The position numbers and the translations under genes are program-made. DNA of 31,461 nt, taken from a virus. The stretch lies in the IMG/VR virus record IMGVR_UViG_3300045988_077615, one strand, 5' to 3'. Below, one piece after another: positions 613 to 30,107 of this stretch (its first letter is position 1; every line of letters starts with the position of its first letter). Below the pieces are notes generated by a model that searched no databases, had not been told where the DNA came from, and was given only the letters and a program-made list of their open reading frames with translations.

Positions 613-631
613 TAGCCTGAAAGGAGGTGTG

Positions 632-658
632 GTCCCCTGGTAGATAGTATCAGGGGAC
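632..658 (+). other. Intergenic hairpin (GTCCCCTG / CAGGGGAC, 11-nt loop) between endolysin and the GH16-like gene
   Basis: 8-bp perfect inverted repeat at 632-639 / 651-658. Preceded by AAGGAGG and a GTGTGGTC copy (627-634). No U-tract follows. Confidence 0.4.
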
Positions 659-668
659 TCTCCCCCCA

Positions 669-1376
669 ATGAAAGACTACTTGAAAAAGAAACCACTGTA
701 TGACTACAGGTCGTACGGTGGGTGGGGTATACAGCGTCCTGAGCACGGTACTCTAGGTCGCTTCGACCCGGCTATGACTAAGCTACTTCCGGATGGCCGT
801 ACGTTCGAACTCAAGATGCAGTTCGACAGGCCAGCCTACTTGATGTATGTCGAGGCAGGGGCCACACACGAGAAAGCGCTGCACAACTCCCTGAGGTGTG
901 GCTCATGGGCAAGCCTATACAACGTCCAGGGGGAGGGCTACTGGTCCATGTGGGTGAAGAACCCACCCTCCTGGACGACTGAAATGGTAGCTATGCTGTG
1001 GCCTGAGGAAGACTCCCGCTGGCCCGAGGGCGAGATAAACTTCATGGAGACCCAGTCTGACAAGACCAAGACTCAGCTGAATCTCCACTGGCCCTCGCCT
1101 AAGGACCGCTCTCCACAGCACTGGCCTGTGACGATCGACCTCGATACACGACAGTGGCACAAGTACGGGGTACGTATCTACTCTGATTGCGTACGGTGGT
1201 TTGTAGACGACAAGATGGTGAGGCACCTAGACACAGAGTTCGCACCTTACAACACCAAGCTGCACTTCGCTGTGCAGTGTGGGGTGAATCAAAACTTCGG
1301 GGTGATGTGGCACAAGGACATCGCCTGGGAAGAGAATATGTACATCATCCCTGAGAGAGCCCCAGGGATACTGTAG
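669..1376 (+). CDS. GH16-like (concanavalin-A-like glucanase fold) glycoside hydrolase, probable second lysis enzyme
   Basis: WSMWV...WPEGEINFME...HW...WHKYGVRIYSDCVRWFVDDKMV matches the GH16 signature (WPxxGEIDxxE, HxYxxxW...YVDG). The catalytic motif here reads E-I-N-F-M-E. ATG at 669. Confidence 0.6.
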   Translation: MKDYLKKKPLYDYRSYGGWGIQRPEHGTLGRFDPAMTKLLPDGRTFELKMQFDRPAYLMYVEAGATHEKALHNSLRCGSWASLYNVQGEGYWSMWVKNPPSWTTEMVAMLWPEEDSRWPEGEINFMETQSDKTKTQLNLHWPSPKDRSPQHWPVTIDLDTRQWHKYGVRIYSDCVRWFVDDKMVRHLDTEFAPYNTKLHFAVQCGVNQNFGVMWHKDIAWEENMYIIPERAPGIL

Positions 1377-1387
1377 TTAGGAGACAC

Positions 1388-1693
1388 ATGGATATTACTA
1401 CGCTCGCCACTGTACCGGCTATGCTCGCTATTGTCGAGCTGCTGAAGCGCCTCGGACTGCCAGCTAAGGCCGCTATGCCGGTTACTGTGGTCTTGTCCGT
1501 TGCTCTGGGCCTTGCTCAGACTTTCCTTGGAGGTGATCCTGTCTACCAGGCTGCCGCTAAGTACCTGCTGATGGGTCTCGGTGCGTGTGGCCTCTACGAT
1601 GCAGCTAAGCTCGCATCCCCTACCGTGGAGCAGAAGAACGAGTTGAACACCACTGTCCCTCGTCGTGCTGAGGCTCCTGAGGTGACTGCCTGA
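1388..1693 (+). CDS. Holin-like small membrane protein
   Basis: 101 aa with 2-3 hydrophobic helices and a charged C-terminal tail. Last gene of the lysis cassette. SD TAGGAG lies upstream of the ATG. Confidence 0.55.
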   Translation: MDITTLATVPAMLAIVELLKRLGLPAKAAMPVTVVLSVALGLAQTFLGGDPVYQAAAKYLLMGLGACGLYDAAKLASPTVEQKNELNTTVPRRAEAPEVTA

Positions 1694-1704
1694 TCTAAGG
1701 CATA

Positions 1705-1740
1705 AAATAACCCCCTACCTAAACAGGTAGGGGGTTATTT
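1705..1740. terminator. Bidirectional rho-independent terminator between the convergent arms
   Basis: Perfect 16-bp stem AAATAACCCCCTACCT / AGGTAGGGGGTTATTT with a 4-nt loop (AAAC). T-rich flanks on both strands. Located between the ends of the + and - arms. Confidence 0.85.
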
Positions 1741-1758
1741 GTTTACTAGGGGCATAGG

Positions 1759-1839
1759 CTACCACCTTTCGTTGAGGAAGTATCCGATGACCAGGCCTAA
1801 GGCCAGGGCCAGCATCATCATAGCAACGCACATGTCCAT
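1759..1839 (-). CDS. Possible 26-aa single-pass membrane micro-protein (MDMCVAMMMLALALGLVIGYFLNERW)
   Basis: Hand translation. The ATG lies 1 nt after the stop of the upstream 49-aa ORF. Too short for the ORF track. Confidence 0.3.
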   Translation of the reverse strand: MDMCVAMMMLALALGLVIGYFLNERW

Positions 1840-1840
1840 G

Positions 1841-1990
1841 TCAGCTTCCAAGATGTTTCTTGATGATGCGCTTGATGATTTTCTCAGGTGGCCAGCAGTA
1901 CAGGCCTGAAACTTGAGCAATCTCTTGACCACACGCCAGCCTTTGTTCCTGGCTAGTGTGAGGGTAGTAGTAGCGTAGTTGTGCGGCCAT
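1841..1990 (-). CDS. Hypothetical 49-aa protein
   Basis: Hand-translated open frame (MAAQLRYYYPHTSQEQRLACGQEIAQVSGLYCWPPEKIIKRIIKKHLGS). Fills the gap after 2005..2271. Confidence 0.4.
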   Translation of the reverse strand: MAAQLRYYYPHTSQEQRLACGQEIAQVSGLYCWPPEKIIKRIIKKHLGS

Positions 1991-2004
1991 TGCTTCCGGG
2001 TCGA

Positions 2005-2271
2005 TCACCATAGTGCGTCTCCAATCGAGTCGATCTCGTCCATGAGGTTGTCTAGTTCACAGTAGTAGCAGTATGCGGCCAGGTAGTCAGGCAGGTCCAC
2101 ACCGTCCCAGGTTACCTTACCTTCAGCAGCATGGTCAATGTCAATCTTGAGGTTGACGAGGATGGCCTCGCTGAGGTCCTCTCCGTACACGTTGAGGACG
2201 TGATCGTGAAGCTCAGCAAGGTCGATGCCGTGCTCGGCTACGTACTCGGGGTCTCGTTTGAATCCTAGCAT
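2005..2271 (-). CDS. Hypothetical acidic protein (88 aa)
   Basis: ORF track. Overlaps its neighbour by a few nt (operon packing). D/E-rich. Confidence 0.6.
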   Translation of the reverse strand: MLGFKRDPEYVAEHGIDLAELHDHVLNVYGEDLSEAILVNLKIDIDHAAEGKVTWDGVDLPDYLAAYCYYCELDNLMDEIDSIGDALW

Positions 2272-2720
2272 TGTGTTGCCTCCATGTCGTCTAGCAGGTA
2301 TACCAGCGGTGAGCGTTCAACTCCTGGTATAGCCCTCAGTCTTGTGATTGTCTCTTGCAGTGTCAGGTCCGTAGGTATCGCCCTGAACGCCTCTGACTCT
2401 AGCACAGTGGCGTAGTGCGTGTCTAGTACCCACTCAGCCCTACGCATGAGGGCGTTGACAGGGTCATCAATGAGGTCTCCTACGAGACTGTCGTCGATGC
2501 CCTCACCCATGTGGTCGTACAGCTCCTCACCGCACGGCATGTACCTGTCTGTGGCCCTCTGGCAGTACTGCACTGCCCAGTAGCGAGGACATACCCACAG
2601 CTCCCACTCCCACATGAAGTCGTCTGGCAGCTCATCGTAGCCCCACTCGGACAGCTTGTCGAGGACCTTGATGTGGCCAGGTGTGGCTGCCACGTCCCAC
2701 AACTCATCAATAGTGTACAT
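2265..2720 (-). CDS. Hypothetical acidic, Trp-rich protein (151 aa)
   Basis: ORF track. Tightly packed in the - strand operon. Confidence 0.6.
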   Translation of the reverse strand: MYTIDELWDVAATPGHIKVLDKLSEWGYDELPDDFMWEWELWVCPRYWAVQYCQRATDRYMPCGEELYDHMGEGIDDSLVGDLIDDPVNALMRRAEWVLDTHYATVLESEAFRAIPTDLTLQETITRLRAIPGVERSPLVYLLDDMEATQC

Positions 2721-2723
2721 TGT

Positions 2724-2897
2724 TCACCGCTCCACTACGAGAAAGGTTGCTTTGACTGGAGTGTGCTGGCTAGAGTCCCAGTAGATGTCTCCCAGCTCAC
2801 TGGTGTAGAGGTAGCCACACTCGAGGAGTGCCTCGATGCTAGCTCCGTAGAAGTTCTCGACGATCTCTACCTTGATTGTTCCCTGTGTTTCGATCAT
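2724..2897 (-). CDS. Hypothetical 57-aa protein, leaderless
   Basis: Hand-translated open frame (MIETQGTIKVEIVENFYG...). The ATG is exactly 6 nt downstream of a TGTGCTAAGGT extended -10. Confidence 0.5.
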   Translation of the reverse strand: MIETQGTIKVEIVENFYGASIEALLECGYLYTSELGDIYWDSSQHTPVKATFLVVER

Positions 2898-2933
2898 GGT
2901 ATTACCTTAGCACACTCTAGAGAGATTGCACAA
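2898..2933 (-). promoter_or_regulatory. Sigma-70-type promoter with extended -10, driving the leaderless 2724..2897 gene
   Basis: On the - strand: TTGTGC (2928-2933), 18 nt spacer, GTGTGC-TAAGGT (-10 at 2904-2909), then 6 nt to the ATG at 2897. Confidence 0.55.
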
Positions 2934-4524
2934 CTTCAGGCTGCCACTCTCCCGGAGTGTCTAGCCCGGTGACGACAAGGTCCTGTGACCCCGACTTAGT
3001 TTCTACTTGAATACTCAACGACTCTGCCTGGCGAGATATGTACAGACTGTTGTCTGACCAGGCGTGCAGAGCCACTGACCCTGCCAGTGCTGCGCCTCCA
3101 GTGGAGGGCATGTCCTTGTTGGCCTTGCGTGTGTGGTGCACTATAAGCTGAGCGCACCCTGTAGCCTGAGCTACAGTCTTGATGGGCTGTAAGATCTGCC
3201 CGTACATGGCCTGAGAGTCATTGATCGACTCCGTGGTGAGCATAGACAGTGTGTCATAGCACACTAGGCCTATGCCCATCGAGTCTATGGTCTCGCCTAT
3301 CTCCTCAGCTAGCTCAGGTGACAGCCCTTGTGTGGGCCTGCCTGCTATATAGAGGGGGATATCCCCGTCAGGAGGGTTAAGCTCCAGCACGCCAGACTTG
3401 CAGGTTATGTACCCTCGAGGGTCATGGTGGGGGAATCTGCACTGGAGGATAGTCTGTACGCGAGCCCACACACGTGACAGGCTGTCCTCCGCCTCGATGA
3501 TGAGGCAGGGTGCCTGATGTGACCTAGCGTACCCTAGCACTGGCTGGCCTAGAGACAGGCTGATAGCCATATCCAGCATGACCCAGCTCTTGTAGTGCTT
3601 AGGCGGTGCAGCTATGAAGCCACAGCCACCTTCCTCCACCAGGCCGTCGATACGCCACCGCGGAGGGGGCATGTTGACTAGCTCAGATAGTTGCCTGATC
3701 TGGAGCAAAGGCTCTTTAGGTGAATCTTCAACTATCTCGATAGTCTCAGTAGTTTTAGACCCTGCAAGGTCTAGTTTACTAGCTACCCTCTGAACCTCAG
3801 CCCTCAGCTTGTCTACTGAACCCCATTTATTAAGGCACGTGTGCCTGACCAAGCCAGGGATAAACTCCGGCTCAACCCCACACTCCAGCATGCTAGCTAT
3901 AGCCGCGTACAGCTGGCTCGACCTGTCACCAAGGGCTTTACTAGCACGAAGCTGCCCTGCTATAGATGCCGAGCTACCGTCCAGTGTACGGTACACTGCT
4001 GAGGCCAGCTCACCAGGGGTCTGTGTGGTCCCGTAGGTAGGCCTCCCTACCTTACACCCCCTCTTGTGTGAGGGTGTACCAGGTACCCTGAGTAGCTGAG
4101 TAGCATCCCAGCCTCCAGGGTCGCAGCCTAACACGTGGCTGACGGCCCTAGACAGACTGTCCTGGTCAGGCTGAGGCACAGTCTCAGTAAGCCTCCAGAT
4201 AGCTTGTGTGTGACCTGGGCTACTAGTCCACACAGCGAGGGGGTTAGTACCCTCCGTGTGGCCGTCGTCTACGTCAGACCAGATCAACGGGCCCGCTTTG
4301 AGGAACTCCGCTTTCCTTTCTGGTTTACTGAAAAGACCGGGAGTGAAATATACATCCTGCCCAGCTTCAACGAGATCCCGCACGTAGTGTTTCGCTTCGT
4401 CCTGTTGGTCCACAACCCGAAAGGCTTTGCCCGGGTTGAAAGCCTGACTCGGCCATTTGATCCCACAGATGAAAAAATACCCATCACAACCCTCCCAGAT
4501 TGTCTCGAAGAATCTCATCCTCAA
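2917..4524 (-). CDS. Bifunctional primase-polymerase / RepA-like (AAA_25, DnaB/RecA-fold) helicase
   Basis: The N-terminal part has prim-pol-like motifs (DVYFTPGLF, WSDVDDGH). The C-terminal part has Walker A-like APPKHYKS, Walker B-like LIIEAEDS, and HHTRK. Confidence 0.65.
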   Translation of the reverse strand: MRMRFFETIWEGCDGYFFICGIKWPSQAFNPGKAFRVVDQQDEAKHYVRDLVEAGQDVYFTPGLFSKPERKAEFLKAGPLIWSDVDDGHTEGTNPLAVWTSSPGHTQAIWRLTETVPQPDQDSLSRAVSHVLGCDPGGWDATQLLRVPGTPSHKRGCKVGRPTYGTTQTPGELASAVYRTLDGSSASIAGQLRASKALGDRSSQLYAAIASMLECGVEPEFIPGLVRHTCLNKWGSVDKLRAEVQRVASKLDLAGSKTTETIEIVEDSPKEPLLQIRQLSELVNMPPPRWRIDGLVEEGGCGFIAAPPKHYKSWVMLDMAISLSLGQPVLGYARSHQAPCLIIEAEDSLSRVWARVQTILQCRFPHHDPRGYITCKSGVLELNPPDGDIPLYIAGRPTQGLSPELAEEIGETIDSMGIGLVCYDTLSMLTTESINDSQAMYGQILQPIKTVAQATGCAQLIVHHTRKANKDMPSTGGAALAGSVALHAWSDNSLYISRQAESLSIQVETKSGSQDLVVTGLDTPGEWQPEVVQSL

Positions 4525-4789
4525 CCCTAGCTATCTCTTCCTTGTAGGTACCAGGGGTTACGCATGCCCAATACCCTCCGGCTGACATGATATCAGCCCC
4601 AACTCGAATTTGCCACTGGCTCAAAGATGAGCCTGTTTTAAGCTCCAGACCTACGAACCTACCTCTGAAGCAGGCTATCAGGTCTGGGATGCCTTTCTTA
4701 GTGTACTGGCTGGCGTGGTATTTGACAACCCACCAACCTCTACCTTCTATGTACTTCTGAACTTGTCTTGAGAATGTGCTCTCTAGCAT
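4484..4789 (-). CDS. VRR-NUC domain nuclease
   Basis: GIPDLIACFRGRFVGLELKTGSSLSQWQ matches the VRR-NUC core (PD...ExK...Q). Start moved to the internal Met at 4789, because the track's upstream extension overlaps 4827..5279 and is Arg-rich junk. Confidence 0.65.
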   Translation of the reverse strand: MLESTFSRQVQKYIEGRGWWVVKYHASQYTKKGIPDLIACFRGRFVGLELKTGSSLSQWQIRVGADIMSAGGYWACVTPGTYKEEIARVEDEILRDNLGGL

Positions 4790-4826
4790 GCCCAGAGCAG
4801 GGCGCAGGTCCCTGCTCCAGACTATG

Positions 4827-5279
4827 TCAGAGAATGTCGTCGAACTCGCCGAAGTCGTCCTCAACGTCACAGCTGTCCTGGGCAGTCTCAGGAGCCTTAG
4901 GGGAAACCTCAGAGAACGGGGCCACACGCGCCACACGGCTGCGCAGCTTGCCATTGTAGGTGTCGTCCTCAAGCTCTACGTTGATCTTAGCCCCAACGTA
5001 CTTGGCAGGATCAATCTGGACAACCTTGTTAGGTACCCGGGTGCCCGCAGCTTCGATCAGTTCACGGAGCTTCCATAGCTGATTCGGGACGATCTTGCAG
5101 TAGTAGGGGTAGCGTCCAGGACCTGCCACGATAGCGAACACCAGCATGTCGGTGTTATCTGACTTGGTCTTGGTCATATCCACCCCAGCGATCTCAGCGT
5201 TGTACACGCCTGGCGCCTGGTGGACGGTGCTGAAGCTCGGTGCCTTGACGTCGGAGAAGTCGATCGAGATCTTAGCCAT
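4827..5279 (-). CDS. ssDNA-binding-like protein (DUF669-like) with acidic C-terminal tail
   Basis: 150 aa. The C-terminus DDFGEFDDIL resembles an SSB acidic tip. Adjacent to the Sak4-like ATPase, as in many phage recombination modules. Confidence 0.5.
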   Translation of the reverse strand: MAKISIDFSDVKAPSFSTVHQAPGVYNAEIAGVDMTKTKSDNTDMLVFAIVAGPGRYPYYCKIVPNQLWKLRELIEAAGTRVPNKVVQIDPAKYVGAKINVELEDDTYNGKLRSRVARVAPFSEVSPKAPETAQDSCDVEDDFGEFDDIL

Positions 5280-5547
5280 TGTTGGTTTCCCTTTCCTTGA
5301 GGATTGATCGGATGTAGTCGATTGTAGCAGTAGTAGTGGTGAAGAAGCAAACCGTGATGGTGAACATATCGCGGTTCACGTGGTCATTGTATCGCACCTC
5401 GTACTGGCCTACCTGGTGGGCCACAGTGATAGGGTTGGGCACGTCGATGACGGCCAGGTCATGGTGCTCGAAGCGCCATGGCAGATCATCCATCTGGTCA
5501 CACAACCTGACAAGAGCGTTACTAGCGACCTTTGAAAAATCAATCAT
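5272..5547 (-). CDS. Hypothetical protein (91 aa)
   Basis: ORF track. Overlapping starts and stops with both neighbours. Confidence 0.55.
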   Translation of the reverse strand: MIDFSKVASNALVRLCDQMDDLPWRFEHHDLAVIDVPNPITVAHQVGQYEVRYNDHVNRDMFTITVCFFTTTTATIDYIRSILKERETNNG

Positions 5548-6202
5548 GTGTGAGGTACCTTTCTAGACGTTCCCAAGTGGGAGACCCCAACCAGGGCTTA
5601 CGGGCTGCAATGTCAGCCCTGCACCCCGCCACGATACCCTGTGTGGGCTTGAGCCACATACGGTACCCGGTGTCGGAGTCTCTCTTAACTGACTCTGTGT
5701 AGCCTATCACGTCAGCATACATGAGCGCAAACTGTCGTGCTTGGCCTGGAAGAGCCAGGGTGACCTCCTTAGTCTGGGCCACATCAGCGTCCTCGGGGTC
5801 AGCCTCATCCACGTAGGTGACCTTAGCCTGCCCTGTCAGGACCACAGGGATGTCTAGACCACGCAGAGTAAGGATCAGTGACTTGATCAGTTCGTTGGCC
5901 TGGCCATATTGGGGGAGACTGACAGGCTTGGCGACTGTCAGCAGATCCCCTCGCTTACGCCCAGATACGAAATTCAGTGCCAGCTCATGGGCCACAGTGA
6001 TGCTGTCCAGAGCTACTGCCTGCGGAGGCTTAGCGACTATGGACTGAACCTCTTTGGCAAGGGCCTCCCAGGTATCTACCTGTGTGGTCTCGGCCTGTAC
6101 TGCACGGGTGCCTCCCTCGAGGTCGATGATGCGCACCCCCGGCACCGTAGCTGCGAAAGTTGTCTTGCCTGTCTTAGGCTGGCCATACACTAGTGTGATC
6201 AT
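5540..6202 (-). CDS. RecA-fold AAA ATPase (Sak4-like)
   Basis: Walker A GQPKTGKTT within the first 15 aa. Size of ~220 aa and genomic context fit. Confidence 0.6.
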   Translation of the reverse strand: MITLVYGQPKTGKTTFAATVPGVRIIDLEGGTRAVQAETTQVDTWEALAKEVQSIVAKPPQAVALDSITVAHELALNFVSGRKRGDLLTVAKPVSLPQYGQANELIKSLILTLRGLDIPVVLTGQAKVTYVDEADPEDADVAQTKEVTLALPGQARQFALMYADVIGYTESVKRDSDTGYRMWLKPTQGIVAGCRADIAARKPWLGSPTWERLERYLTHD

Positions 6203-7146
6203 TTGTACCTCTCCATAGGGTCTCTCTTGTCAAAGAATTGAAGGTATTGCTCGTCGGTACCGAATTCTACCCTAGCCGCTGCGAGTTTTCCCATACGGCA
6301 CAGGTACGAATTACCACACACTGACGGATTCCTGTCCTCTGGTGGCTTAGACCAGTCGTACTCCCCGACCTGCCTAGCCCACCTCAGTATCGATTTGATC
6401 TGCCTGGCATGCACCTCCTTATTGAACGGCACCAGCAGCCTGGCGAAAGCTGGGCAATGTTGACGCTTCAACAACTCAGCATCCTTCGCGATGATGTCGC
6501 ACTCCGCTGAGGTAATCTCAGTACGGTGCTCATGAGCCCAGTCTATCAGAGATCGGTAGCAAGTGCTACCTGTGGACCCCTTCGTGATCTTAAGCTTACC
6601 TGTCTTAGTCAGCTGGGGCCACACAACACGCTGTGGCTGAATGTAGTCCCAGATCATCCCACCAAGAGGCAGGTCCCAGCCGAGGCGCTTCTTGTTGCCC
6701 TCGAGGAGCCAGAGGTACGCATGCGACTGGATATCCAGCTGCCGGTACTCGGCTGTAGGGAGGGTCTGGTGGGTTTTGTGGTCCAGCACCCACAGACGGC
6801 CACCGAGCTCGACTACCTTATCGATCTTACCTCGGTAGTTGCAGTTGCATCCTGGGATACCCCTGCTCAAATCGAGCTCGCACGCCAGGACGTTGAGGGG
6901 CTCATCACGGTACCTGTACTCGTAGGCACGGTACACACGATCGAGGTCATCGTAGATCTGGTGCTCCTCCTCCATAAGGTCCTTTGGGCGCTCTGGTGGA
7001 GTACCTGTCTCAAGCCACGCATGGAGATACGTACCCCTATCCAATGCCGTACCGGGGTGAGGCTTGGCTGAGATCCCCTGTAGGTCATAGTAAGCCTCCA
7101 AAGGGCAGTTAAGCCAAGACTTGATCAAGCTTGTGGTTATCTGCAT
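6199..7146 (-). CDS. PD-(D/E)XK exonuclease, Cas4/RecB-like
   Basis: GKIDKVVE...LWVLDHKT nuclease core. An N-terminal Cys (WLNCP) and C-terminal CGNSYLC suggest an Fe-S cluster of Cas4/AddB type. Confidence 0.6.
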   Translation of the reverse strand: MQITTSLIKSWLNCPLEAYYDLQGISAKPHPGTALDRGTYLHAWLETGTPPERPKDLMEEEHQIYDDLDRVYRAYEYRYRDEPLNVLACELDLSRGIPGCNCNYRGKIDKVVELGGRLWVLDHKTHQTLPTAEYRQLDIQSHAYLWLLEGNKKRLGWDLPLGGMIWDYIQPQRVVWPQLTKTGKLKITKGSTGSTCYRSLIDWAHEHRTEITSAECDIIAKDAELLKRQHCPAFARLLVPFNKEVHARQIKSILRWARQVGEYDWSKPPEDRNPSVCGNSYLCRMGKLAAARVEFGTDEQYLQFFDKRDPMERYK

Positions 7147-7154
7147 GTCTCCTA

Positions 7155-13087: not shown

Positions 13088-13110
13088 CCCCTGATCCGAA
13101 AATGTTAACC

Positions 13111-13592: not shown

Positions 13593-13610
13593 CCCCATTT
13601 AGGGGTAATT

Positions 13611-18315: not shown

Positions 18316-18357
18316 AATGTGTTATACTGTTTACAGGATTGAATTGGAGGTGTAATA

Positions 18358-22090: not shown

Positions 22091-22092
22091 TC

Positions 22093-22623
22093 GTGGATCT
22101 TATTGGGGCTGATACTCTGGAAGCCCTAAGTAAGGGGGTCATCAAAAAGGATGACCCCCTTACCCCTATTCTTATTAGGCAGGCTTCCGGACTTATTAGG
22201 GAATTCTGCGAATGGCATATCTACCCTTTGATCACTGAGACTAAGCGGGTAGATCACAAGGGCGGACACTTTATTAAGCTGCCCACACTGATGCTTCAGG
22301 ATGAGCCTACGATCGAGTATCTCGGTCATGAGCGTGTGGTCCAGGAATGGTCTGAAGCTGGTATGTGTAGGCTGAGTGATCCACTGCCTGCTGCTATGGG
22401 GGCTATTCAGGCTACGCTGACTCATGGTTATAGTGAGCTGCCCGCCACGGTCGAGGTTGTTATGGCGTCGATTATTGTGGCGTCTGTGACTTCTCCGGTC
22501 GGTGTTAATCAAGCTGCCGTTGGCTCAGTATCGAGTACGTTTGAAGTTCCTGGTGGGGGTATCCGATTGAGCGCTTATGCTAAGCGGGCACTCGATGGAT
22601 TTAGGTTGGTGTATCGTCCTTGA
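22093..22623 (+). CDS. Head-tail connector/adaptor protein
   Basis: Called from position after the capsid gene and from size. gp6-like N-terminus. Confidence 0.5.
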   Translation: MDLIGADTLEALSKGVIKKDDPLTPILIRQASGLIREFCEWHIYPLITETKRVDHKGGHFIKLPTLMLQDEPTIEYLGHERVVQEWSEAGMCRLSDPLPAAMGAIQATLTHGYSELPATVEVVMASIIVASVTSPVGVNQAAVGSVSSTFEVPGGGIRLSAYAKRALDGFRLVYRP

Positions 22624-23000
22624 GCTTTCCCTTTCTAACTAATGGTTATATCTGGGTGGCTCGACTTCAGGACAAGTACGATGACCGGGGTAATTTGATT
22701 CAAGATCAGGTTGCTAAGGAATTCACTATCCAGGGCTGCTCTATTCAGCAGCCTAGTGCGGCTGAGCTGTCTGGTGATAGGCAGGGTGACGGTCAGTGGA
22801 CGTACACGGTGTACGCACCACTGACTGCATCCGTACAGGCTAAAGATCTGGTCATCCTCAGCTGGGACCACAAAGGTACGCCGGGAGAATGGTTCAACAA
22901 GACCACACCTGTGTACAGAGTGTCAGGCGTTCCCGGTGTGTGGTCTTATGATTACCTCGGCCTTAGTCACCAGGTGATTAAGCTTGTGGCGGTGGACTGA
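22620..23000 (+). CDS. Head closure / head-tail joining protein
   Basis: Called from position and size only. Start overlaps the upstream stop. Confidence 0.4.
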   Translation: MSFPFLTNGYIWVARLQDKYDDRGNLIQDQVAKEFTIQGCSIQQPSAAELSGDRQGDGQWTYTVYAPLTASVQAKDLVILSWDHKGTPGEWFNKTTPVYRVSGVPGVWSYDYLGLSHQVIKLVAVD

Positions 23001-23266
23001 TGCTTGAGCGACTTGAATTCCATGATGAGGGATTCCAGGAAATGCTTAAGTCATCTGAGGTTGCTTCAGTTCTAAACGATATGGCCCAGAAGATATGTGA
23101 TCAGGCTAATGACAATGCTGGCCGTGACGATGCTTTTGAGTGGTCGGGCTATGTGGGTCAGACTCGAGCTAGGGCTACGGTGAGGCCGGCTAGCTTTTAT
23201 GGGGCTAAGTCTGAGGCTGACGACAAGACGTTGACTAGCGCGTTTGGGAGTTATACTCATGGGTAA
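23000..23266 (+). CDS. Neck/tail-completion protein (HK97 gp10-like position)
   Basis: Called from position and size only. ATGA-type start/stop overlap. Confidence 0.35.
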   Translation: MLERLEFHDEGFQEMLKSSEVASVLNDMAQKICDQANDNAGRDDAFEWSGYVGQTRARATVRPASFYGAKSEADDKTLTSAFGSYTHG

Positions 23267-23678
23267 TTATGTTGCTGAGTTCCCTGATGCCGAGGCTGCC
23301 TGCATTATGGGCTTGAGGGCGCACCTACAGGGAGTCCCTGTAAGGCAGCAAGCAGACAAGCTAGGAACTCGACAGTGTGTGGTCAAGCTGACTAGCTCTG
23401 GTACTCGCCTTGATCCTCGCAGAGTGAGGGTCCAGCTTACTGTCACATGCTGGGGTAAGGACAACACTGATAGCACAGAAGCCTTTAACTTGGCGGCTAA
23501 ATGCCTTAATTGGGTTGAAGAGAGGCCCTATTATGGGCATATGGGTAAATACCCTTGTCATAAAGTCGATATTGTTTCTTACCCTTATTATGACCCTGAT
23601 AGCAGCCAGTCATCTGGCGGTTCAGGGATCGCTCGATATTCTTTTACGTTCCGTATGATTCTAGCAGGAGTGAACTAA
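23259..23678 (+). CDS. Tail terminator-like protein
   Basis: Position immediately before the major tail protein. Start set at the ATG at 23259 (SD GGGAG 8 nt upstream). Confidence 0.4.
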   Translation: MGNYVAEFPDAEAACIMGLRAHLQGVPVRQQADKLGTRQCVVKLTSSGTRLDPRRVRVQLTVTCWGKDNTDSTEAFNLAAKCLNWVEERPYYGHMGKYPCHKVDIVSYPYYDPDSSQSSGGSGIARYSFTFRMILAGVN

Positions 23679-24269
23679 ATGGCTGTAAATAACCGTAATG
23701 TGCTGGCAGGCCGTCCGGATCAGGCAGTGACTGGAGCTATCCTCTCCACTACTACTCTGGTGACTACGCTGCCTACTGATCTGTACAATCTTGATCTGGG
23801 TGCGCTTAAGCTGACTGACTCGGGGTATGTCAGTGACGCTGGCCTGACCCTGTCAGTTAAGCGTTCAACTAACGACATCAAAGACTGGTCTCAGTCTGTG
23901 GTTAAGAAGATCCTGAGTGAGTTCTCGGGTTCTATTAAGTGGTCTCACCTTGAGGTTTCTGAGGGCTCGGCGAAGAACTTCTTCGGTGAGAACAATGTCA
24001 CTGTTACCCCGAAGACGACTTCGCAGGGTACTCGCCTGTTGATGAAGCTTCGCGCTGATGAGCTGCCCCACAAGACCTGGTGCTTCCGCATGAAGGATGG
24101 CGACGCTAAGATCATCATCTGGGTGCCTGATGGCCAGATCACTGAGGCTGACGACATCACGTTCGCTGCTAGTGACGCGATTAAGCTGCCTGTGACCCTG
24201 ACTTGCTACCCGGATGCTCAGGGTAACTCGCTGTACATCGCCACCGATGATGGGGTGATCGGAGCGTGA
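23679..24269 (+). CDS. Major tail protein
   Basis: 196 aa, directly upstream of the chaperone pair and the tape measure. Confidence 0.7.
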   Translation: MAVNNRNVLAGRPDQAVTGAILSTTTLVTTLPTDLYNLDLGALKLTDSGYVSDAGLTLSVKRSTNDIKDWSQSVVKKILSEFSGSIKWSHLEVSEGSAKNFFGENNVTVTPKTTSQGTRLLMKLRADELPHKTWCFRMKDGDAKIIIWVPDGQITEADDITFAASDAIKLPVTLTCYPDAQGNSLYIATDDGVIGA

Positions 24270-24595
24270 GCAAGGTCTTTCAGCTTGACGGCCCCAAGGC
24301 TACGGACAATTTCAAGTTCCGTATGCCGGGGTCTAAAGTTACTCATGAGTTGCCGTCTCTTCAGAAGCTGCCTGTGGGTATACGTAAGCGTATGGGTGAT
24401 CTAGCCGGGGCTATTCAGGCTCAGCAGGAGCGGGGTAAGAAACCAACCCAGAAGCAGACTTCTGATCTGCTTGACTTCCAGCTAGATCTGCTTGAGCATT
24501 ACGTGCCGGGTATTACGGATAAGCTCGACGACGATATGTTTATGGCGCTTATGGAGGCGTGGAAAGAGCACTCTGAAATCAGCATGGGGGAATAA
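24266..24595 (+). CDS. Tail assembly chaperone (G-like)
   Basis: 109 aa, located between the major tail protein and the tape measure. Ends at the slippery G-run. Confidence 0.7.
   Translation: MSKVFQLDGPKATDNFKFRMPGSKVTHELPSLQKLPVGIRKRMGDLAGAIQAQQERGKKPTQKQTSDLLDFQLDLLEHYVPGITDKLDDDMFMALMEAWKEHSEISMGE
24586..24592 (+). promoter_or_regulatory. Candidate -1 programmed frameshift site GGGGGAA
   Basis: A run of five G plus AA immediately before the G-ORF stop (24593-24595). The -1 frame is open from 24577 through 24960. Confidence 0.5.
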
Positions 24596-24603
24596 TAGGG
24601 CTA

Positions 24604-24960
24604 GTGGGGGTGTGGCATAATCACCCACTAGCCCTAGAGCGTGAGCTCATTGGGCTAGGTTTGAGGTCCCGTCAGGTAGGCACAGAGGAGCTTACCTGGC
24701 GGGATCTTCAGGCTATAGTCAGCCATGCTGAGCCAGGAGGGCCGCTGGCTAAGGATCTAGGCTATGTGTGGACCACAGACGGCTATATGCTAGCTAACAT
24801 CTATGACGTCCTTGCTGGAGCTAACTGGCAGCGTGCTGGAAAGTCCAGTGAGCCTCCACCTAAACCCATTAGACGGCCAAATGAGATTAGGGATGATGAG
24901 CGTGCTTTCGGGTATGACCCCATCCCTCTAAGTGAATTCAATGATTGGTGGGATGCCTAA
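24604..24960 (+). CDS. Tail assembly chaperone T-part (expressed as a G-T fusion by -1 frameshift)
   Basis: Its frame is -1 relative to the G ORF and overlaps it by 19 nt of open frame. No SD of its own. This is the canonical arrangement before a tape measure gene. Confidence 0.6.
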   Translation: MGVWHNHPLALERELIGLGLRSRQVGTEELTWRDLQAIVSHAEPGGPLAKDLGYVWTTDGYMLANIYDVLAGANWQRAGKSSEPPPKPIRRPNEIRDDERAFGYDPIPLSEFNDWWDA

Positions 24961-27314
24961 TGGCTTCAGTTGAGCTAGCTACAGGTTATTACCAACTAGT
25001 GCCCTCCATGAAGGGTAACAAGGAAGCTATTGTTGGAGAAATCACTGGTGCTGTAAACGAGGGGTCCGATAAGGCTGGCAAAGAAGGTGGAGCTAGGTTA
25101 TCTACTAGGCTAGCCGAGGGGCTGAAAGGTAGCTCCCTTGCGGCCCTCGGTGCAGGTGTGGCCGCGGGTATTGGCGCTGCCCTCTACAAAGTTGGCGAGA
25201 CTTTCGATGAAGTTACTGATACTATCCGTACAGGTACAGGCGCCACAGGCGAGGCTCTCGATGGACTAGTCGATGTCGCCAAGCGCGTGGGCTCTACCAC
25301 ACCAGCTGAGTTCTCCAAGATTGCCCCAGTTGTTGCTGATCTGAATACCAGGCTAGGTCTGACTGGCGAGGACCTCGAGACTGTGGCTAAGCAGGTTCTT
25401 GAGGCTGGCCGGTTGCTGGGTCAGGATGTCGATATCAGCAAGACCACAGCAGCGTTTAGTGCTTTTGGCCTTGAGGCTAAGCAGATTCCTGGAGCTATGG
25501 ATGATCTGTTCCGGGTCAGCCAGGCTACTGGCTTAGGTTTCAATGATCTGGCCCAGAAAACCGCTCAGGCCGCGCCTACAATGAAGGCTCTTGGATTCGG
25601 GTTCCAAGACACAGCAGCAATGATCGGTGCCTTCGATAAGGCGGGGCTTAATTCAAGCCAGATTATGACCTCTATGACTAAGGGTCTCACTACTCTGGCT
25701 AAGTCCGGTGAGGAGCCCAAGGAAGCCTTCAAGCGAGTTACTGGGGAGATTGGTGGCTTTATCCAGTCGGGTAATGAAGCTGCTGCTCTTAAACTTGCTA
25801 GTAAGTTGTTTGGTACTAAGGGTGCTACTCAGTTTGTGGAGGCACTAAAGCAGGGCAAAATTGGCGCTGAGGACATGATGAAGTCCATCGGCGCTACTGA
25901 TGACACTATTCTTGGTGTGGCCGGTGAGACATCCGACTTCGCTGAGAAGTGGCAGATAGTTCAGAACAATGCTCAACTTGCCTTGGAGCCGCTTGGCTCT
26001 GCTGTGTTTAGTACCCTGGCTGATGTCTTGTCGGCTATGGCTCCCACTCTCCAGGATATAGGTAACTGGCTGAAAGAGAACACGTGGGCGTTCGGAGCTC
26101 TGGGTGCAGCTATTGCTGGTATCCTGATTCCTGCCTTCGTTACGTGGGTAGCAGGTATCTGGGCGTCTACGGCAGCTCTTCTTGCCAGCCCTATCACGTG
26201 GATTGTGGTTGGTATAGCTGCGCTGGCTGCGGGACTGGTACTACTGATTGCTAACTGGCAGGCTGTATCTGACTTCATCGGTGGTGTGTGGAACGCTACT
26301 GTGGAAGGCGCTAAGGGCCTCTGGGAAGACTTCGTCAGAGGACTGACGGAGTTCGCTACGGGTATTGGCCAGTGGTTTATGGAAGGTCTGGCTGGAGCTG
26401 GGCAGCAGATTGCTGAGTTCTTCGCTGGCCTACCTCAGATGATCCTGGATGGCCTTGCTGCACTGGGAGAGGTTACCCTCATGATTGTGGGCTTCTCTAT
26501 AGGTATCTTCGCTGGCCTGATTGTGGGTTTCGTCCAATTCCTGGGGTACATCCCAGGCTGGCTGGCGTCTGTGGGTGAGTGGCTGATGTCGCTTCCCGGC
26601 AAGGTACTTGAATGGCTCGCTGGTCTTGGTCAGCTTGCTGGTAAGGCGGCTGAGTGGTTCGGTGGTTTCTTCCAGAGCATGGTCCGCAAGGGTGGCGAGA
26701 TTATTGAGTGGGTTAAGCAACTGCCTGGCAAGATCATTGGTGGTATAGCGTCACTGGCGTCGAGCCTTCCGCAGAAAGCTTCTGAGGCGTGGAACGGATT
26801 CCTCCGTAAGGCTCAGGAGCTCGGCGGCCAGGTTGCTGAATTCGCTCGCTCGCTGCCAGGCAAGATCACTGGAGCTCTTGGTGATCTAGGCAGCCTTCTG
26901 GTCCGGTCTGGTGGTGCTCTTGTGGATGGCTTCTTGCGGGGTATCCAAGGAGCGTGGAACTCGCTTGTGGGCTGGGTTAAGCAGGGCATGGACTGGTTGC
27001 GTGGTCTGTGGCCTTTCTCCCCGGCTAAGTGGGGGCCTTTCTCGGGTAAGGGCTACGTGACTCATTCTGGTAAAGCGATTATTCGAGACTTCGCTGATAG
27101 CCTTAAGAATGAGCAGCCTTATCTGCTTGATTCTGCTAAGAGCGTTATGGGTGACTTCCAGTCGAATTTCCAGCCTAATCTGAATGGAGTTCAACCTGCT
27201 TATGCTGGAGCTAATGCTGGAGGTAATACCAGTAGGGTCAATGTCAATGCATACAGCAGTGACCCTTACGCTACTGCTGAGGAAGTTGCTCGGCAGCTGA
27301 GGAGATTGATGTGA
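24960..27314 (+). CDS. Tape measure protein
   Basis: 784 aa, Ala/Gly/Leu-rich with a central hydrophobic segment. Position fits. ATG at 24960 overlaps the upstream TAA. Confidence 0.85.
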   Translation: MASVELATGYYQLVPSMKGNKEAIVGEITGAVNEGSDKAGKEGGARLSTRLAEGLKGSSLAALGAGVAAGIGAALYKVGETFDEVTDTIRTGTGATGEALDGLVDVAKRVGSTTPAEFSKIAPVVADLNTRLGLTGEDLETVAKQVLEAGRLLGQDVDISKTTAAFSAFGLEAKQIPGAMDDLFRVSQATGLGFNDLAQKTAQAAPTMKALGFGFQDTAAMIGAFDKAGLNSSQIMTSMTKGLTTLAKSGEEPKEAFKRVTGEIGGFIQSGNEAAALKLASKLFGTKGATQFVEALKQGKIGAEDMMKSIGATDDTILGVAGETSDFAEKWQIVQNNAQLALEPLGSAVFSTLADVLSAMAPTLQDIGNWLKENTWAFGALGAAIAGILIPAFVTWVAGIWASTAALLASPITWIVVGIAALAAGLVLLIANWQAVSDFIGGVWNATVEGAKGLWEDFVRGLTEFATGIGQWFMEGLAGAGQQIAEFFAGLPQMILDGLAALGEVTLMIVGFSIGIFAGLIVGFVQFLGYIPGWLASVGEWLMSLPGKVLEWLAGLGQLAGKAAEWFGGFFQSMVRKGGEIIEWVKQLPGKIIGGIASLASSLPQKASEAWNGFLRKAQELGGQVAEFARSLPGKITGALGDLGSLLVRSGGALVDGFLRGIQGAWNSLVGWVKQGMDWLRGLWPFSPAKWGPFSGKGYVTHSGKAIIRDFADSLKNEQPYLLDSAKSVMGDFQSNFQPNLNGVQPAYAGANAGGNTSRVNVNAYSSDPYATAEEVARQLRRLM

Positions 27315-28153
27315 AAGAAGTCACGTGGAATGGCCACGTGATTAATGGCGGGGACTGGGTTGTTAGTGAGTGTAAGCTCTTCGGCTCAGCCCCTGCCGTT
27401 GCACAGAGTGGCCAGCGTGTGGGCTATGACGGTATATGGCGTACTAAGGCCTACCATGGTGCTAAGTCCGGTGCTATCAAGGGGTATTATGTAGGGCAGT
27501 CTCTTGAGGATGCCGAGGAGGCCCTGGAGACTCTCCTGAGTATCGCGGATATTAATACCTCACCACTGACTGTTAACACACCGCGCGGACCGAAGACTAT
27601 GTATGTGGCCCGGGACAGTGCACTCGATATAACGTTCCTGGCTAATGGGTCAGCGTTTGAGTGGGGTGCTACTCTGATAGCTCCTGACCCTGTGTGGTGG
27701 CGTGGAGGTCAGACTCCTGATGGTCAGATTGATGATCAGTACACGGCTAAGCATAGGCTGTATCTACCCAACCTTACGGGCGGTATTAAGTTCCCGATCA
27801 AGTATCCTATCTCTTTCTTGGAGACAGGTAACTACGGTTCGGTTACGGTAAGCTCGGGCTACCATAACAGGGTTAGCCTTAAGCTTTATGGCTACGTTCA
27901 GATACCGTCTGTGATCTTTTCTGGTCCTGGGGGTGCTGGACGCTTGCGGTGGGACTTTACTCTACAGGCTGATGAGTGGCTAGACATTGATTTGACTAAC
28001 CGCACGTCTCTTCGTCAAGGCCAGTCAGCCGCTGCCCCTACTATCAGGGAATGGCCTGAGCTAGGCAGGGGTGAATTGACTATCGGATTCCGTTCTGACG
28101 TGTATTCCCCTACTGCTTATCTTGATGTAATTGTAAGACAGGTGACTATATAA
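27311..28153 (+). CDS. Distal tail protein (Dit-like)
   Basis: 280 aa, immediately after the tape measure. Confidence 0.6.
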   Translation: MKEVTWNGHVINGGDWVVSECKLFGSAPAVAQSGQRVGYDGIWRTKAYHGAKSGAIKGYYVGQSLEDAEEALETLLSIADINTSPLTVNTPRGPKTMYVARDSALDITFLANGSAFEWGATLIAPDPVWWRGGQTPDGQIDDQYTAKHRLYLPNLTGGIKFPIKYPISFLETGNYGSVTVSSGYHNRVSLKLYGYVQIPSVIFSGPGGAGRLRWDFTLQADEWLDIDLTNRTSLRQGQSAAAPTIREWPELGRGELTIGFRSDVYSPTAYLDVIVRQVTI

Positions 28154-29043
28154 TGGCTCTTGATAATGTGCTACCTATTGGTGGCAATATTTCAGTGAAT
28201 GCCGCGGAATTCCGTAGGCTCGATGTGGGCTCTACTATGGTCCACGATACCCACCCTCTGGCGTGTCGGCCAGGCGTGACGTCGGGGATGACTCCTAGCC
28301 TTAATGGTAGCCAGATTAGGGTCAGTTCTGGTACGGCTATTGTGACGCCTGTGGCCTCGAATAATGGTAGCTACCGTGTGGCTAACGTCGATGACGTTAG
28401 CTTGCCGCTGTACGCTAAGGATACGTCGTACCCGCGTACTGATATTCTGGTGCTGAAAGTGTATGACGGTACTGTGGACGGCTCTAACCAGTACAAGGCC
28501 GCGTTTGAAATGATTAAGGGCGTGGCCTCCGCCAGTTTCCCCACACCTGCTACGCCAGCAGGCGCACTGCTGATTGCACGTGTGATCGTGTCGACTACTG
28601 GCAGCCCTACTATCTACGATACTAGGCAGTACACGTGCGCTGTTGGCGGGACTATCCCGTGCTATTCGAATAGCAGGCCCACAACGTGGTTCCTTCAGAA
28701 GGGCCAGCGCATCTACGAGCTGGACACAAACAAGGTCATGCTGTGGACTGGCAGTTCGTGGCGTGAGGATACGGTGATTCCTCAGGTGACCTTGCCACGT
28801 ATCCCTGCTATTGCGTCGGGTACGGTGACTGCTAGCTCTGCTGGGCCTGCTGTGTTCACTATTCAGTTCCCGCCTGGACGTTTCTCGAGCGCCCCTCGTG
28901 TTGTGGCCTCGGTTAGGTCAGCGTCAGGTGACTTCACGTGGGACACACCTAAGCCCTATAACGTCACTGCGACACAATTTCAGATGTTCGTTAAGAATGG
29001 TCGGGGTTGTGACTTCGACTGGATAGCGATCGAGAACGGCTAA
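28153..29043 (+). CDS. Minor tail protein
   Basis: Called from position only. Beta-rich and Thr/Ser/Val-rich. Confidence 0.5.
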   Translation: MALDNVLPIGGNISVNAAEFRRLDVGSTMVHDTHPLACRPGVTSGMTPSLNGSQIRVSSGTAIVTPVASNNGSYRVANVDDVSLPLYAKDTSYPRTDILVLKVYDGTVDGSNQYKAAFEMIKGVASASFPTPATPAGALLIARVIVSTTGSPTIYDTRQYTCAVGGTIPCYSNSRPTTWFLQKGQRIYELDTNKVMLWTGSSWREDTVIPQVTLPRIPAIASGTVTASSAGPAVFTIQFPPGRFSSAPRVVASVRSASGDFTWDTPKPYNVTATQFQMFVKNGRGCDFDWIAIENG

Positions 29044-30107
29044 TGATCACGTGGCATTCATTTGCCGCTCTTGACGGCAGGCCTCTTACTGAACTGCCAG
29101 GGCTGTCAGTGAAGTCTAGTCTGTCATCCATCATTGGGCGGGGAGACTCCGTGACTGTGAGTCTCCCCGTCTGTGATAGGTGGCCTGCTAACTGGATGGA
29201 TGGCACTCAACCTATGCGTGCTGTCCTGGCAGCTATCGATGACGGCCTTGTGCTGTGGGCTGGCTGGGTAGAGAAGCGCACATACGGGTCAGGTGAGTCC
29301 ATGGAGCTGACTCTACAGCCTGCCGAAGAGTGGCTTAAGAGGAATTATATCCCTGAGATCGTTTTCAGGGATCAGCGATACACGACTATTGCTCGAGGAA
29401 TAGGTCTAGACCGTCTGGTAGCTCAGTTTAATGGGCGTCTGGATGAGGATCCTACCCTTGATTGGGGTGACAGGACGTACCGTGCTGACCAGGATATGAC
29501 GTGCTTGGCCGGTCTCCAGAATTTGATGAAGACTAAGCATGGTGCAGAGTTCGCTACTAGCTGGGAACTACATGCTAATGGCCACCTCGGTATTGTGGTC
29601 CACACAGCATACAGGCTTGGCGGTGTAGGCAAGGACACTGCTGGTGCTGCTGTGCTGTCTCAAGGGTCCTGGCAGCAGGTTGAGGACTGCTCTGACGGTA
29701 AAGGAGCCACCATTTGGCGTGTGGTCTCCAATAGATCTGGGGATGAGCGCAAGGAATTCGCTACATCTAATGGTCAGGTCCTTCAGTATGGGTGGCTTGA
29801 GCTCGAGAGACGGTGGACTCCTGACACTGGGTCAGTTGCTGACGCTGTGCTACAGCAATATATGTACGCGGCTAAGGAGAGCCAGCAGTACGGATTGACG
29901 TCTATCAGTGTGGAGACTACATTGGACCACTTCATGCCAGGCCGTGACTTCGTTTTAGGCGACTATGTGGACATTGATATGACTAATCTTAGTAACCCCG
30001 AGCTGCAATTCAAAGGTAAAGCTAGGGTTATCGGGTGGGTATGTGACCCTGACCCTGTATCTGGTGAGATCACTAAGATCAAGCCCATGCTTTCATTGGA
30101 GGATTGA
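29043..30107 (+). CDS. Minor tail protein (Tal/baseplate-hub-like)
   Basis: Called from position and size (354 aa) only. Confidence 0.45.
   Translation: MITWHSFAALDGRPLTELPGLSVKSSLSSIIGRGDSVTVSLPVCDRWPANWMDGTQPMRAVLAAIDDGLVLWAGWVEKRTYGSGESMELTLQPAEEWLKRNYIPEIVFRDQRYTTIARGIGLDRLVAQFNGRLDEDPTLDWGDRTYRADQDMTCLAGLQNLMKTKHGAEFATSWELHANGHLGIVVHTAYRLGGVGKDTAGAAVLSQGSWQQVEDCSDGKGATIWRVVSNRSGDERKEFATSNGQVLQYGWLELERRWTPDTGSVADAVLQQYMYAAKESQQYGLTSISVETTLDHFMPGRDFVLGDYVDIDMTNLSNPELQFKGKARVIGWVCDPDPVSGEITKIKPMLSLED

Follow-up and report, generated by a model that had tools for sequence, protein, structure and literature searches.

The viral DNA deposited in IMG/VR as IMGVR_UViG_3300045988_077615 (31,461 nucleotides, hereafter the window, i.e., the whole stretch that was analyzed) raises the question why one short word, the octamer GTGTGGTC, recurs from end to end and which protein, if any, reads it. 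The window is the genome of a siphovirus with the late arm on the plus strand, followed by the holin gene, and the early arm on the minus strand. Here, we report that the octamer is the commonest form of a heptamer, TGTGGNC, that these heptamers are under purifying selection and are held at silent codon positions, and that the motif is tied to a phage replication module. The primase-helicase of that module is put forward as the candidate reader.

Enrichment of the Octamer at the Level of DNA

An exact search returned 24 copies of GTGTGGTC, 18 on the plus and six on the minus strand, in complete agreement with the coordinates and strands given in an earlier reading of the window (the original prediction).

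Plus strand, 18 octamers GTGTGGTC (exact search; span 627..29726), starts: 627, 4023, 6082, 7736, 9712, 10762, 14521, 15132, 15541, 16323, 16742, 17449, 18848, 20491, 22334, 22938, 23377, 29719
Minus strand, six octamers (read as GACCACAC on the plus strand; span 1927..22908), starts: 1927, 7348, 11680, 14585, 15443, 22901

Dinucleotide-preserving shuffles contained 1.56 copies on average and six at most, and Markov models of orders 0–3 predicted 1.1–2.5; GTGTGGTC takes first or second place among all octamers. In a model of order 5 the prediction climbs to 14, from which it follows that the signal resides in a core shorter than the octamer. When the proteins were kept and the codons shuffled, a check that the original prediction had itself called for, 13 copies on coding strands stood against 1.9 expected and eight on template strands against 0.75 (z about 9 each), and the enrichment was thus not refuted. 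Because synonymous shuffles stay well below the observed counts, the enrichment is a property of the DNA and not of the proteins. The claim that selection acts on the DNA agrees with these shuffles as well as with the excess conservation of silent positions described below.

The original prediction went too far in calling the word independent of reading frame, as coding-strand copies occur only as xGT-GTG-GTC (nine) or GTG-TGG-TC (four). A reading as Cys-Gly is found in none of the coding-strand copies, while the proposed Thr-Thr reading (ACC-ACA) on template strands holds true for seven of eight. With regard to related words, CTGTGGTC is present on the plus strand at 1485, 7262, 8849 and 20647 as listed, the last copy starting at 22011 and not at 22012; the "several" instances of GTGTGGCC amount to eight on the plus and five on the minus strand, and both quasi-palindromes that had been pointed out are present.

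The strand counts of GTGTGGTC that had been given, 12:2 in the late and 6:4 in the early arm, are correct. A late-arm bias of 10:2 is about what is predicted from the skew of that arm (G>C and T>A; roughly 3:1 in a hand calculation from base frequencies), and the strand bias of the octamer in the late arm is, by itself, weak evidence. The stress that had been laid on this bias is partly justified, in that an excess on the plus strand and a regular spacing on it recur in relatives (see below), but both orientations are conserved in both arms. A cluster of five octamers at 14.5–15.5 kb, around the divergent control region, is not significant (P = 0.11) and was dropped as a possible mark of an origin, and no sigma-70-like promoter was detected at 14567–14601, where a promoter carrying the octamer in its spacer had been proposed.

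The Selected Unit Is the Heptamer TGTGGNC

In the window, TGTGG occurs 204 times vs. 85 expected, TGTGGTC 44 times vs. five and TGTGGCC 33 times vs. six. An alignment of the TGTGG copies features a C two bases downstream in 57% and a mild preference for G or C immediately upstream. Defined as TGTGGNC, the motif is present in 116 copies, 70 on the plus and 46 on the minus strand, i.e., about one per 270 bp; all 24 octamers are included. The set spans positions 628..31184; 111 of the 116 sites are located inside genes, and both orientations occur in both arms.

Plus strand, TGTGGNC, starts (first part): 628, 997, 1486, 1586, 2510, 2550, 2672, 3331, 4024, 4257, 5642, 6083, 6571, 6777, 7263, 7737, 8463, 8850, 9713, 10452, 10763, 11287, 11524, 11587, 12295, 12850, 13073, 13851, 14522, 14939, 15133, 15542, 16324, 16743, 16881
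Plus strand, TGTGGNC, starts (second part): 17364, 17450, 17858, 18849, 18965, 19137, 19548, 20121, 20492, 20648, 21028, 21343, 22012, 22335, 22939, 23378, 24767, 25157, 25916, 26486, 26966, 27007, 27418, 27604, 28224, 28350, 28473, 28742, 28902, 29254, 29594, 29720, 29966, 30418, 31178
Minus strand, TGTGGNC, starts (low coordinate of GNCCACA): 860, 1927, 2095, 3464, 4226, 4408, 4920, 5419, 5777, 5840, 5990, 6617, 7348, 7800, 8391, 9084, 9272, 9326, 9454, 9600, 9807, 10551, 11271, 11339, 11399, 11537, 11635, 11680, 12342, 12744, 14368, 14585, 15443, 15881, 16712, 17835, 20022, 20595, 22281, 22866, 22901, 24771, 25442, 28677, 29598, 30394

Protein-preserving codon shuffles gave 8.3 copies of TGTGGYC on coding strands, where 43 are observed (z 15), and 7.6 on template strands, where 31 are observed (z 11). 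The heptamer is thus enriched four- to fivefold over synonymous-codon shuffles on coding and template strands alike, and an artefact of codon or dipeptide usage is ruled out by synonymous-codon and codon-order shuffles.

Conservation was assessed in 41 IMG/VR relatives from human microbiome samples (84–93% nucleotide identity) that were projected onto the window, with same-frame words of equal length within 60 bp serving as controls. The octamer is intact in 82% of the genome-by-site comparisons vs. 46% for the controls (P = 3e-5), and TGTGGYC in 74% vs. 45% (P = 7e-10). At most plus-strand sites, GTGTGGTC is intact in a fraction of 0.8–1.0 of the relatives; the copy at 14521 is intact in 2/21 only. 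Substitution ratios, i.e., the observed rate relative to the expectation from the same codon position in the same gene, amount to 0.40 for T, 0.35 for G, 0.71 for T, 0.33 for G, 0.30 for G, 1.25 for N and 0.51 for C along the heptamer and to about 1 in the flanks, and TGTGG without the downstream NC is unconstrained in the relatives. The site is therefore TGTGGNC, since six positions are constrained, N and the flanks are free and TGTGG alone is not conserved. Conservation is alike for either orientation and in either arm, minus-strand copies being as conserved as those on the plus strand.

Two other definitions of the site were discarded. A palindromic full site, TGTGGNCCACA, is represented by two perfect copies only, and the heptamer is not followed by an A/CACA tail. 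A DnaA box (TTATCCACA, or TTGTCCACA on the other strand, in which TGTGG is followed by A(T/C)AA) does not match either, as A is the rarest base after TGTGG, an A-rich tail is missing and a C occupies position +6 in 57% of the copies.

The Motif Follows a Replication Module and Not the Host

Cultured phages for an unbiased k-mer screen were chosen by the most similar polymerase. In Microbacterium phage Koji, TGTGGCC occurs 50 times vs. 9.7 expected and in Gordonia phage Amok TGGTGTGG occurs 27 times vs. 1.7; both words are among the most over-represented k-mers and survive codon shuffling on both strands (z 5–15). What the window has in common with Koji and Amok is confined to seven replication/recombination genes and, in the case of Koji, the holin gene. 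The module consists of the following genes of the window:

2917..4524, minus strand: primase-helicase (Pfam AAA_25 and a weak match to RepB_primase; PHROG primase/helicase families)
4484..4972, minus strand: Hjc-type Holliday-junction resolvase or endonuclease (Pfam Hjc; PHROG endonuclease; homologues in Koji and Amok)
4827..5279, minus strand: small conserved module protein, weakly DUF669, probably SSB-like
5540..6202, minus strand: AAA_24 (Sak4/RecA-like) ATPase
6199..7146, minus strand: PD-(D/E)XK Cas4-like exonuclease
7155..8876, minus strand: family A DNA polymerase (PolA) with a 3'-5' exonuclease domain
9360..10724, minus strand: SNF2-family helicase

The structural genes of the window are shared with Eden and Shambre1, and neither of these phages exhibits a TGTGG signal at the level of DNA. 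Eden, which infects the same host species as Koji (M. foliorum) and lacks the module, contains TGTGGCC four times vs. 9.5 expected, and the temperate phage ThankyouJordi of Gordonia terrae, likewise without the module, contains TGGTGTGG twice vs. 1.3.

For a wider scan, viral contigs were searched with the primase-helicase alignment, which yielded another 35 loci (27–48% identity), each 9 kb or longer and none from the close clade of the window; 88 loci from other phages, prophages and bacterial DNA served as controls. A 7-mer containing TGTGG is among the ten most over-represented in all 35 module loci and in none of the 88 controls, and among the top three in 28 of the 35, the median rank in the controls being 280. 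No motif signal was found in three loci that carry a distant polymerase alone, nor was there enrichment in stretches of prophage and host DNA taken from 16 genomes of actinobacteria. In one group of human phages, with a TerL 53% identical to that of the window, the structural arm has GTGTGGG or GCTGTGG as one of its top two 7-mers. From the motif alone the module was predicted to reside in the other arm of these phages, and that arm then proved to encode a primase-helicase and, after it, Hjc, the SSB-like protein and AAA_24.

A total of 308 cultured phages possess homologues of the primase-helicase, among them phages that infect Mycobacterium, Clostridium, Serratia and Pseudomonas. Words with the same core rank first in Serratia phage Opt-155 (GTGTGG, 62 vs. 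15, rank 1 of 2051), in Clostridium perfringens phage CPAS-15 with its G+C content of 33% (ATGTGGA, 24 vs. 4.2; TGTGG is the top pentamer) and in Mycobacterium phage FF47 (GGTGTGG, 39 vs. 7), and all three survive codon shuffling. The motif therefore follows the replication module, comprising a RepB'-like archaeo-eukaryotic primase (AEP) joined to a superfamily 4 (SF4) helicase, Hjc, the SSB-like, Sak4-like and Cas4-like proteins, PolA and SNF2, and not the host.

Three contigs of the Human Microbiome Project (L277, L278 and L280) carry the very octamer of the window, GTGTGGTC, in 22 copies within 16.4 kb. This human-associated lineage possesses a module of the Koji clade, its PolA being 57% identical to that of Koji and 38% to that of the window. 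The common octamer could reflect a shared host or convergence.

Two further word families emerged from the screen. TCCTCGT, GACGAGG and CGAGGA form a second family among the top 7-mers of many Koji-type Microbacterium loci (L202, L246-L275), which may be due to codon usage (Asp-Glu) or to an element resembling a ribosome-binding site. CGACTAC and CGGCTAC (CGRCTAC) recur as top words in actinophages and prophages (L204, i.e., Shambre1, L205, i.e., Eden, L102 and L128); in Shambre1 and Eden their excess is seen on the coding strand alone and is no more than modest against codon shuffles (z 3–4), and it is probably for the most part a codon-pair effect. As candidates for DNA-level signals, the Shambre1 and Eden words GTGGTGG, CGACTAC and CGGCTAC were downgraded by codon shuffles to mostly codon effects.

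Spacing and Strand Distribution

Plus-strand TGTGGNC sites in the window are separated by about 450 nt on average and more evenly than random placement would have it: the coefficient of variation (CV) of the gaps is 0.64 vs. 0.98 (P < 0.0005), and the largest gap measures 1389 bp vs. 2167. The same holds true for the plus strands of Koji (CV 0.45, P < 0.0005), FF47 (CV 0.55, P < 0.001) and Opt-155 (CV 0.55, P = 0.03). If the strand with terminase and late genes is taken as plus, the ratio of plus to minus copies is 70:46 in the window, 32:18 in Koji, 33:12 in Amok, 32:7 in FF47 and 13:8 in Opt-155. Paired or phased sites were looked for and rejected, as 62 pairs lie within 150 bp vs. about 64 expected by random placement and neighbors have no preferred spacing or orientation.

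The Primase-Helicase as Candidate Reader

Among the roles offered by the original prediction, the one in agreement with the evidence is a site for a DNA-binding protein of the phage, which leads to the question which protein this might be. A profile of 16 members of the primase-helicase family was used to search the PDB. The N-terminal half, in which the AEP motifs DxD, SPGH and RVPG..HK are invariant in the alignment, matches the primase RepB' of plasmid RSF1010 (3h20, 3h25; E = 0.002–0.006), and the C-terminal half matches the RSF1010 helicase RepA (1g8y, 7.9e-14), the helicase domain of T7 gp4 (5e-7) and Twinkle. The protein encoded at 2917–4524 is thus a functional analogue of T7 gp4 that is built from a different primase, i.e., a RepB'-type AEP combined with a hexameric SF4 helicase.

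The primer made by RepB' begins on the T of a GTG triplet (PMC8567376), and the primase of pRN1 ORF904 starts specifically at GTG (PMC4234260). TGTGGNC contains a GTG triplet, a resemblance to the RepB' and pRN1 start and not a proof. T7 gp4 recognizes TGGTC, GGGTC and GTGTC, the first of which is nested within TGTGGTC. In our opinion, the best explanation, to which we give about an even chance, is that TGTGGNC acts in cis as a recognition or priming site for the primase-helicase that the phage itself encodes. The most likely reader would be the primase domain rather than another protein of the module and the most likely event primer initiation, both of which we infer from the relationships just described.

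According to this proposal, the helicase, being of the SF4 class, would move 5'→3' along the lagging-strand template, and the fused primase would start primers only upon meeting a recognition word that contains GTG; alternatively, the complex may load or pause at TGTGGNC. By chance, a word of six fixed bases would be met about once per 4 kb per strand, which would be too rare, and selection would therefore have introduced copies and maintained them at intervals of a few hundred bases via silent codon positions. The plus strand, i.e., the sense strand of the late genes and the one with the most regular sites, would be the main lagging-strand template or else the strand displaced in rolling-circle replication.

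The same codon-shuffle test was calibrated on T7. Here, TGGTC, GTGTC and the complements GACCC and GACCA, i.e., four of the six words made up of the three gp4 sites and their complements, rank 22–49 of 1024 pentamers (top 5%), and gp4 sites combined number 148 vs. 103 on the plus and 139 vs. 109 on the minus strand. A five-base word as in T7 needs little selection and a word of six fixed bases much, which fits the four- to fivefold excess in the window.

Several observations weigh against this assignment. Primase-helicase, PolA and, where the locus reaches that far, SNF2 always co-occur with the motif, and because of this constant company the primase cannot be distinguished as the reader by presence and absence. 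Nor do the bases around the core vary in step with primase phylogeny: GTGTGGTC is common to the window and L277/L278/L280, with primases only 28% identical, and Koji (TGTGGCC) and L245 (GGTGTGG) have different words despite 67% identity. In L236, a close relative at 48% primase identity, the signal is weak. With regard to geometry, minus-strand sites of the window are not regularly spaced (CV 0.97), and spacing regularity is not significant in Amok or CPAS-15. Okazaki fragments are of kilobase scale in bacteria and T7, and about one site per 450 nt on the plus strand is denser than that. Finally, the match to RepB' is weak (E = 0.002), and RSF1010 RepB' itself uses long structured ssi sites instead of a bare heptamer.

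Alternative Explanations

The co-occurrence that points to the primase applies equally to other proteins of the module, and the site might be read by SNF2 or by the Cas4-like nuclease together with the Sak4-like ATPase. It would then constitute a phage-encoded, Chi-like signal for "self" at which the phage's own machinery for end processing and recombination would halt degradation of phage DNA and switch to recombination-dependent replication. Most module loci contain AAA_24 and Cas4-like genes, the word is G/T-rich and in this respect reminiscent of Chi (GCTGGTGG), and the excess on one strand as well as the regular spacing would also suit a signal for end protection. On the other hand, loci of the Amok type and L274 exhibit only primase, PolA and SNF2 within ±10 kb and yet have strong motifs, which may merely be a matter of gene order; conservation extends to both orientations everywhere, in contrast to Chi, which is active in one orientation with respect to a DNA end, and we know of no sequence-specific SNF2 or Cas4-like phage nuclease of such a kind. 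Taken together, we regard a reader of this sort as unlikely, albeit less so than the explanations that follow below. Somewhat more doubtful still is the elaborate form of the idea, a private Chi written in silent codon positions and read by a non-primase protein (SNF2, Cas4-like or Sak4-like), by which phage DNA would be spared and recombined and host DNA destroyed, with flanks that diversify rapidly from lineage to lineage such that co-infecting relatives go unrecognized.

A Chi-like signal addressed to a host helicase-nuclease (RecBCD, AddAB or AdnAB), the role placed first in the original prediction, or an oligonucleotide signature of the host would likewise account for a word that is over-represented, G/T-rich and commoner on one strand, and for the fact that two distantly related human-associated lineages carry the same octamer. 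It is largely refuted and retains hardly any probability. The TGTGG core follows the phage replication module into hosts of three phyla and ranks at the top in phages of Microbacterium, Gordonia, Mycobacterium, Serratia and Clostridium. Chi sequences known for such lineages differ from one another. Eden and ThankyouJordi, which infect the same hosts (M. foliorum and G. terrae), are devoid of the motif, and neither the stretches from 16 actinobacterial genomes nor any of the 88 controls are enriched. Since the core is common to phages of Actinobacteria, Proteobacteria and Firmicutes and lacking in other phages of those hosts, it cannot be explained by a Chi set by the host or by mimicry of host oligonucleotides. 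The target of a sequence-specific DNA modification, i.e., methylation or hypermodification that protects or marks the genome, had also been suggested; in its make-up, six bases and one free position, the word is similar to sites that modification enzymes recognize, and ThyA-like and deaminase-like genes are present in the phage. We consider this highly improbable, as searches of the window with Pfam and PHROGs revealed no methyltransferase, glycosyltransferase, DpdA-like gene or other modification enzyme, no homologue of the ThyA-like or deaminase genes of the window was detected in the motif-bearing phages Koji and Amok, the lone ThyA-like match among the cultured phages compared stems from the motif-free Eden, and modification provides no reason for enrichment or even spacing. 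The ThyA-like and dCMP deaminase genes look like ordinary genes for dTMP supply. Just as improbable, in our view, is a mutational by-product, in which context-dependent errors of the family A polymerase or its repair partners would create TGTGG-like words and render them slow to mutate and the sites would be without function. The motif does travel with PolA, and a mutational sink could mimic both enrichment and conservation; however, the constrained footprint is seven bases long with a free internal position, phages with polymerases of 73–78% identity have different flanks, plus-strand spacing far more even than chance in four phages is not expected from a mutation bias, and the distant loci with PolA alone show nothing. 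Stoperator-type repressor sites were rejected, as no repressor was found and 111 of the 116 sites are intragenic, with both orientations in both arms.

The Phage Genome

The window corresponds to ENA scaffold ZHAN15-1_SAMEA2738013 scaffold_368. Its two ends form an identical direct repeat of 55 bp (1-55 and 31407-31461), which marks the assembly as complete and circular (or circularly permuted), 31,406 bp of it being unique. Neither an integrase nor a repressor was detected in it. The genome is a mosaic: the structural genes (1-1900 and 15321-31461) are similar to their counterparts in Microbacterium phage Eden and Arthrobacter phage Shambre1, and the replication arm (1901-14800) resembles that of Koji, Amok, FF47, Serratia phage Opt-155 and Clostridium phage CPAS-15. 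For TerL, capsid protein and polymerase the nearest cultured relatives are actinophages (38–48% identity), and this holds true also for the holin. Homologues of TerL are almost all metagenome proteins. There was no nucleotide match to the window in the phage collection and no close prophage in a scan of genome contigs, the best match being a 5-kb contig binned with a metagenome-assembled genome of the Oscillospiraceae.

In addition, the early arm encodes thioredoxin-like, ThyA-like and deaminase-like proteins. The deaminase-like protein (11780-12562) comprises 251–260 residues, roughly 100 more than the dCMP deaminases of 109–180 residues annotated in the phages examined, and its Pfam match is confined to residues 15–109.

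With regard to other words in the window, GAATTC, the EcoRI site, occurs 15 times vs. about four expected, and TGCA is strongly depleted (152 vs. 313, both strands counted); excess and deficit may reflect restriction pressure in the host. Three overlapping or adjacent runs of CGCGCGCG at 14724-14761, in a G+C-rich (62%) stretch between the arms, are a possible origin or regulatory feature. The 13-base word CCTATACCTAGCC is located in the SNF2 gene (10269-10281), and its reverse complement is found at 27-38 (with a copy at 31433-31444) beside GGTGTGGC, near the scaffold junction; this recurrence, which involves two unique copies, may be due to chance.

Implications

A full-text literature search returned nothing relevant on variants of the motif, on over-representation of primase sites or on Rothia phages. 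As a kind of element, a primase recognition word is already known, while a heptamer that is selected, evenly spaced and linked across phyla to a module with an AEP-type primase-helicase appears to be new. If the proposal is correct, a whole replication module, found in Microbacterium cluster EA phages such as Koji, Emalyn-type Gordonia phages, FF47-type mycobacteriophages, phages of Serratia and Clostridium and abundant human-associated phages, has a cis-acting code that has previously gone unnoticed. It would also be the first AEP-type primase-helicase that visibly shapes synonymous-site content and site spacing genome-wide, and the template specificity of the enzyme family would be readable without experiment. 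In practical terms, the word can be used as a marker for the module in metagenomic contigs, having here foretold the gene content of the other genome arm. It constitutes a constraint when such phages are recoded or engineered, and it calls for caution when hosts are predicted from k-mer similarity.

Comparison With Known Systems

Dispersed repeats of actinophages, i.e., the stoperators of cluster A, the start-associated sequences (SAS) and extended SAS (ESAS) and the 18-bp motifs of Microbacterium clusters EC, EG and EI, resemble TGTGGNC in being short, asymmetric and numerous throughout the genome. Unlike the 116 copies in the window, 111 of which are in genes, they measure 13–18 bp, number 5–36 copies, are mostly intergenic and are tied to transcription or translation starts. 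A survey of 116 Microbacterium phages reported intergenic repeats in clusters EC, EF, EG and EI and nothing of such a kind for cluster EA. Chi sites for RecBCD or AddAB are likewise over-represented G/T-rich words, of five to eight bases, that lie inside genes in several frames and with a strand preference; they differ in that the host enzyme defines them and the chromosome of the host is enriched in them, whereas the word in the window follows a phage module across phyla and is conserved in both orientations.

The closest sequence relationship is to RSF1010 RepB', with its sites ssiA and ssiB, and pRN1 ORF904, primases of the same superfamily that start at GTG, a triplet contained in TGTGG. 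However, RepB' acts at two structured origin sites of 40 nt in a replication that is leading-strand-only, pRN1 ORF904 needs only GTG, and neither is accompanied by a dispersed selected heptamer or forms one chain with a RepA-type helicase as in the window. T7 gp4 differs in its primase, which is of the DnaG/TOPRIM type with a zinc finger in contrast to the RepB'-type AEP of the window, and in its words, which comprise five bases with an excess of about 1.4-fold, compared to six fixed bases, a four- to fivefold excess and regular spacing in the case of TGTGGNC, at which priming is only proposed. In other respects, T7 provides a parallel to what we propose here: short words on the lagging-strand template that serve a primase fused to a 5'→3' SF4 helicase and that are present on both strands genome-wide with an excess at silent positions.

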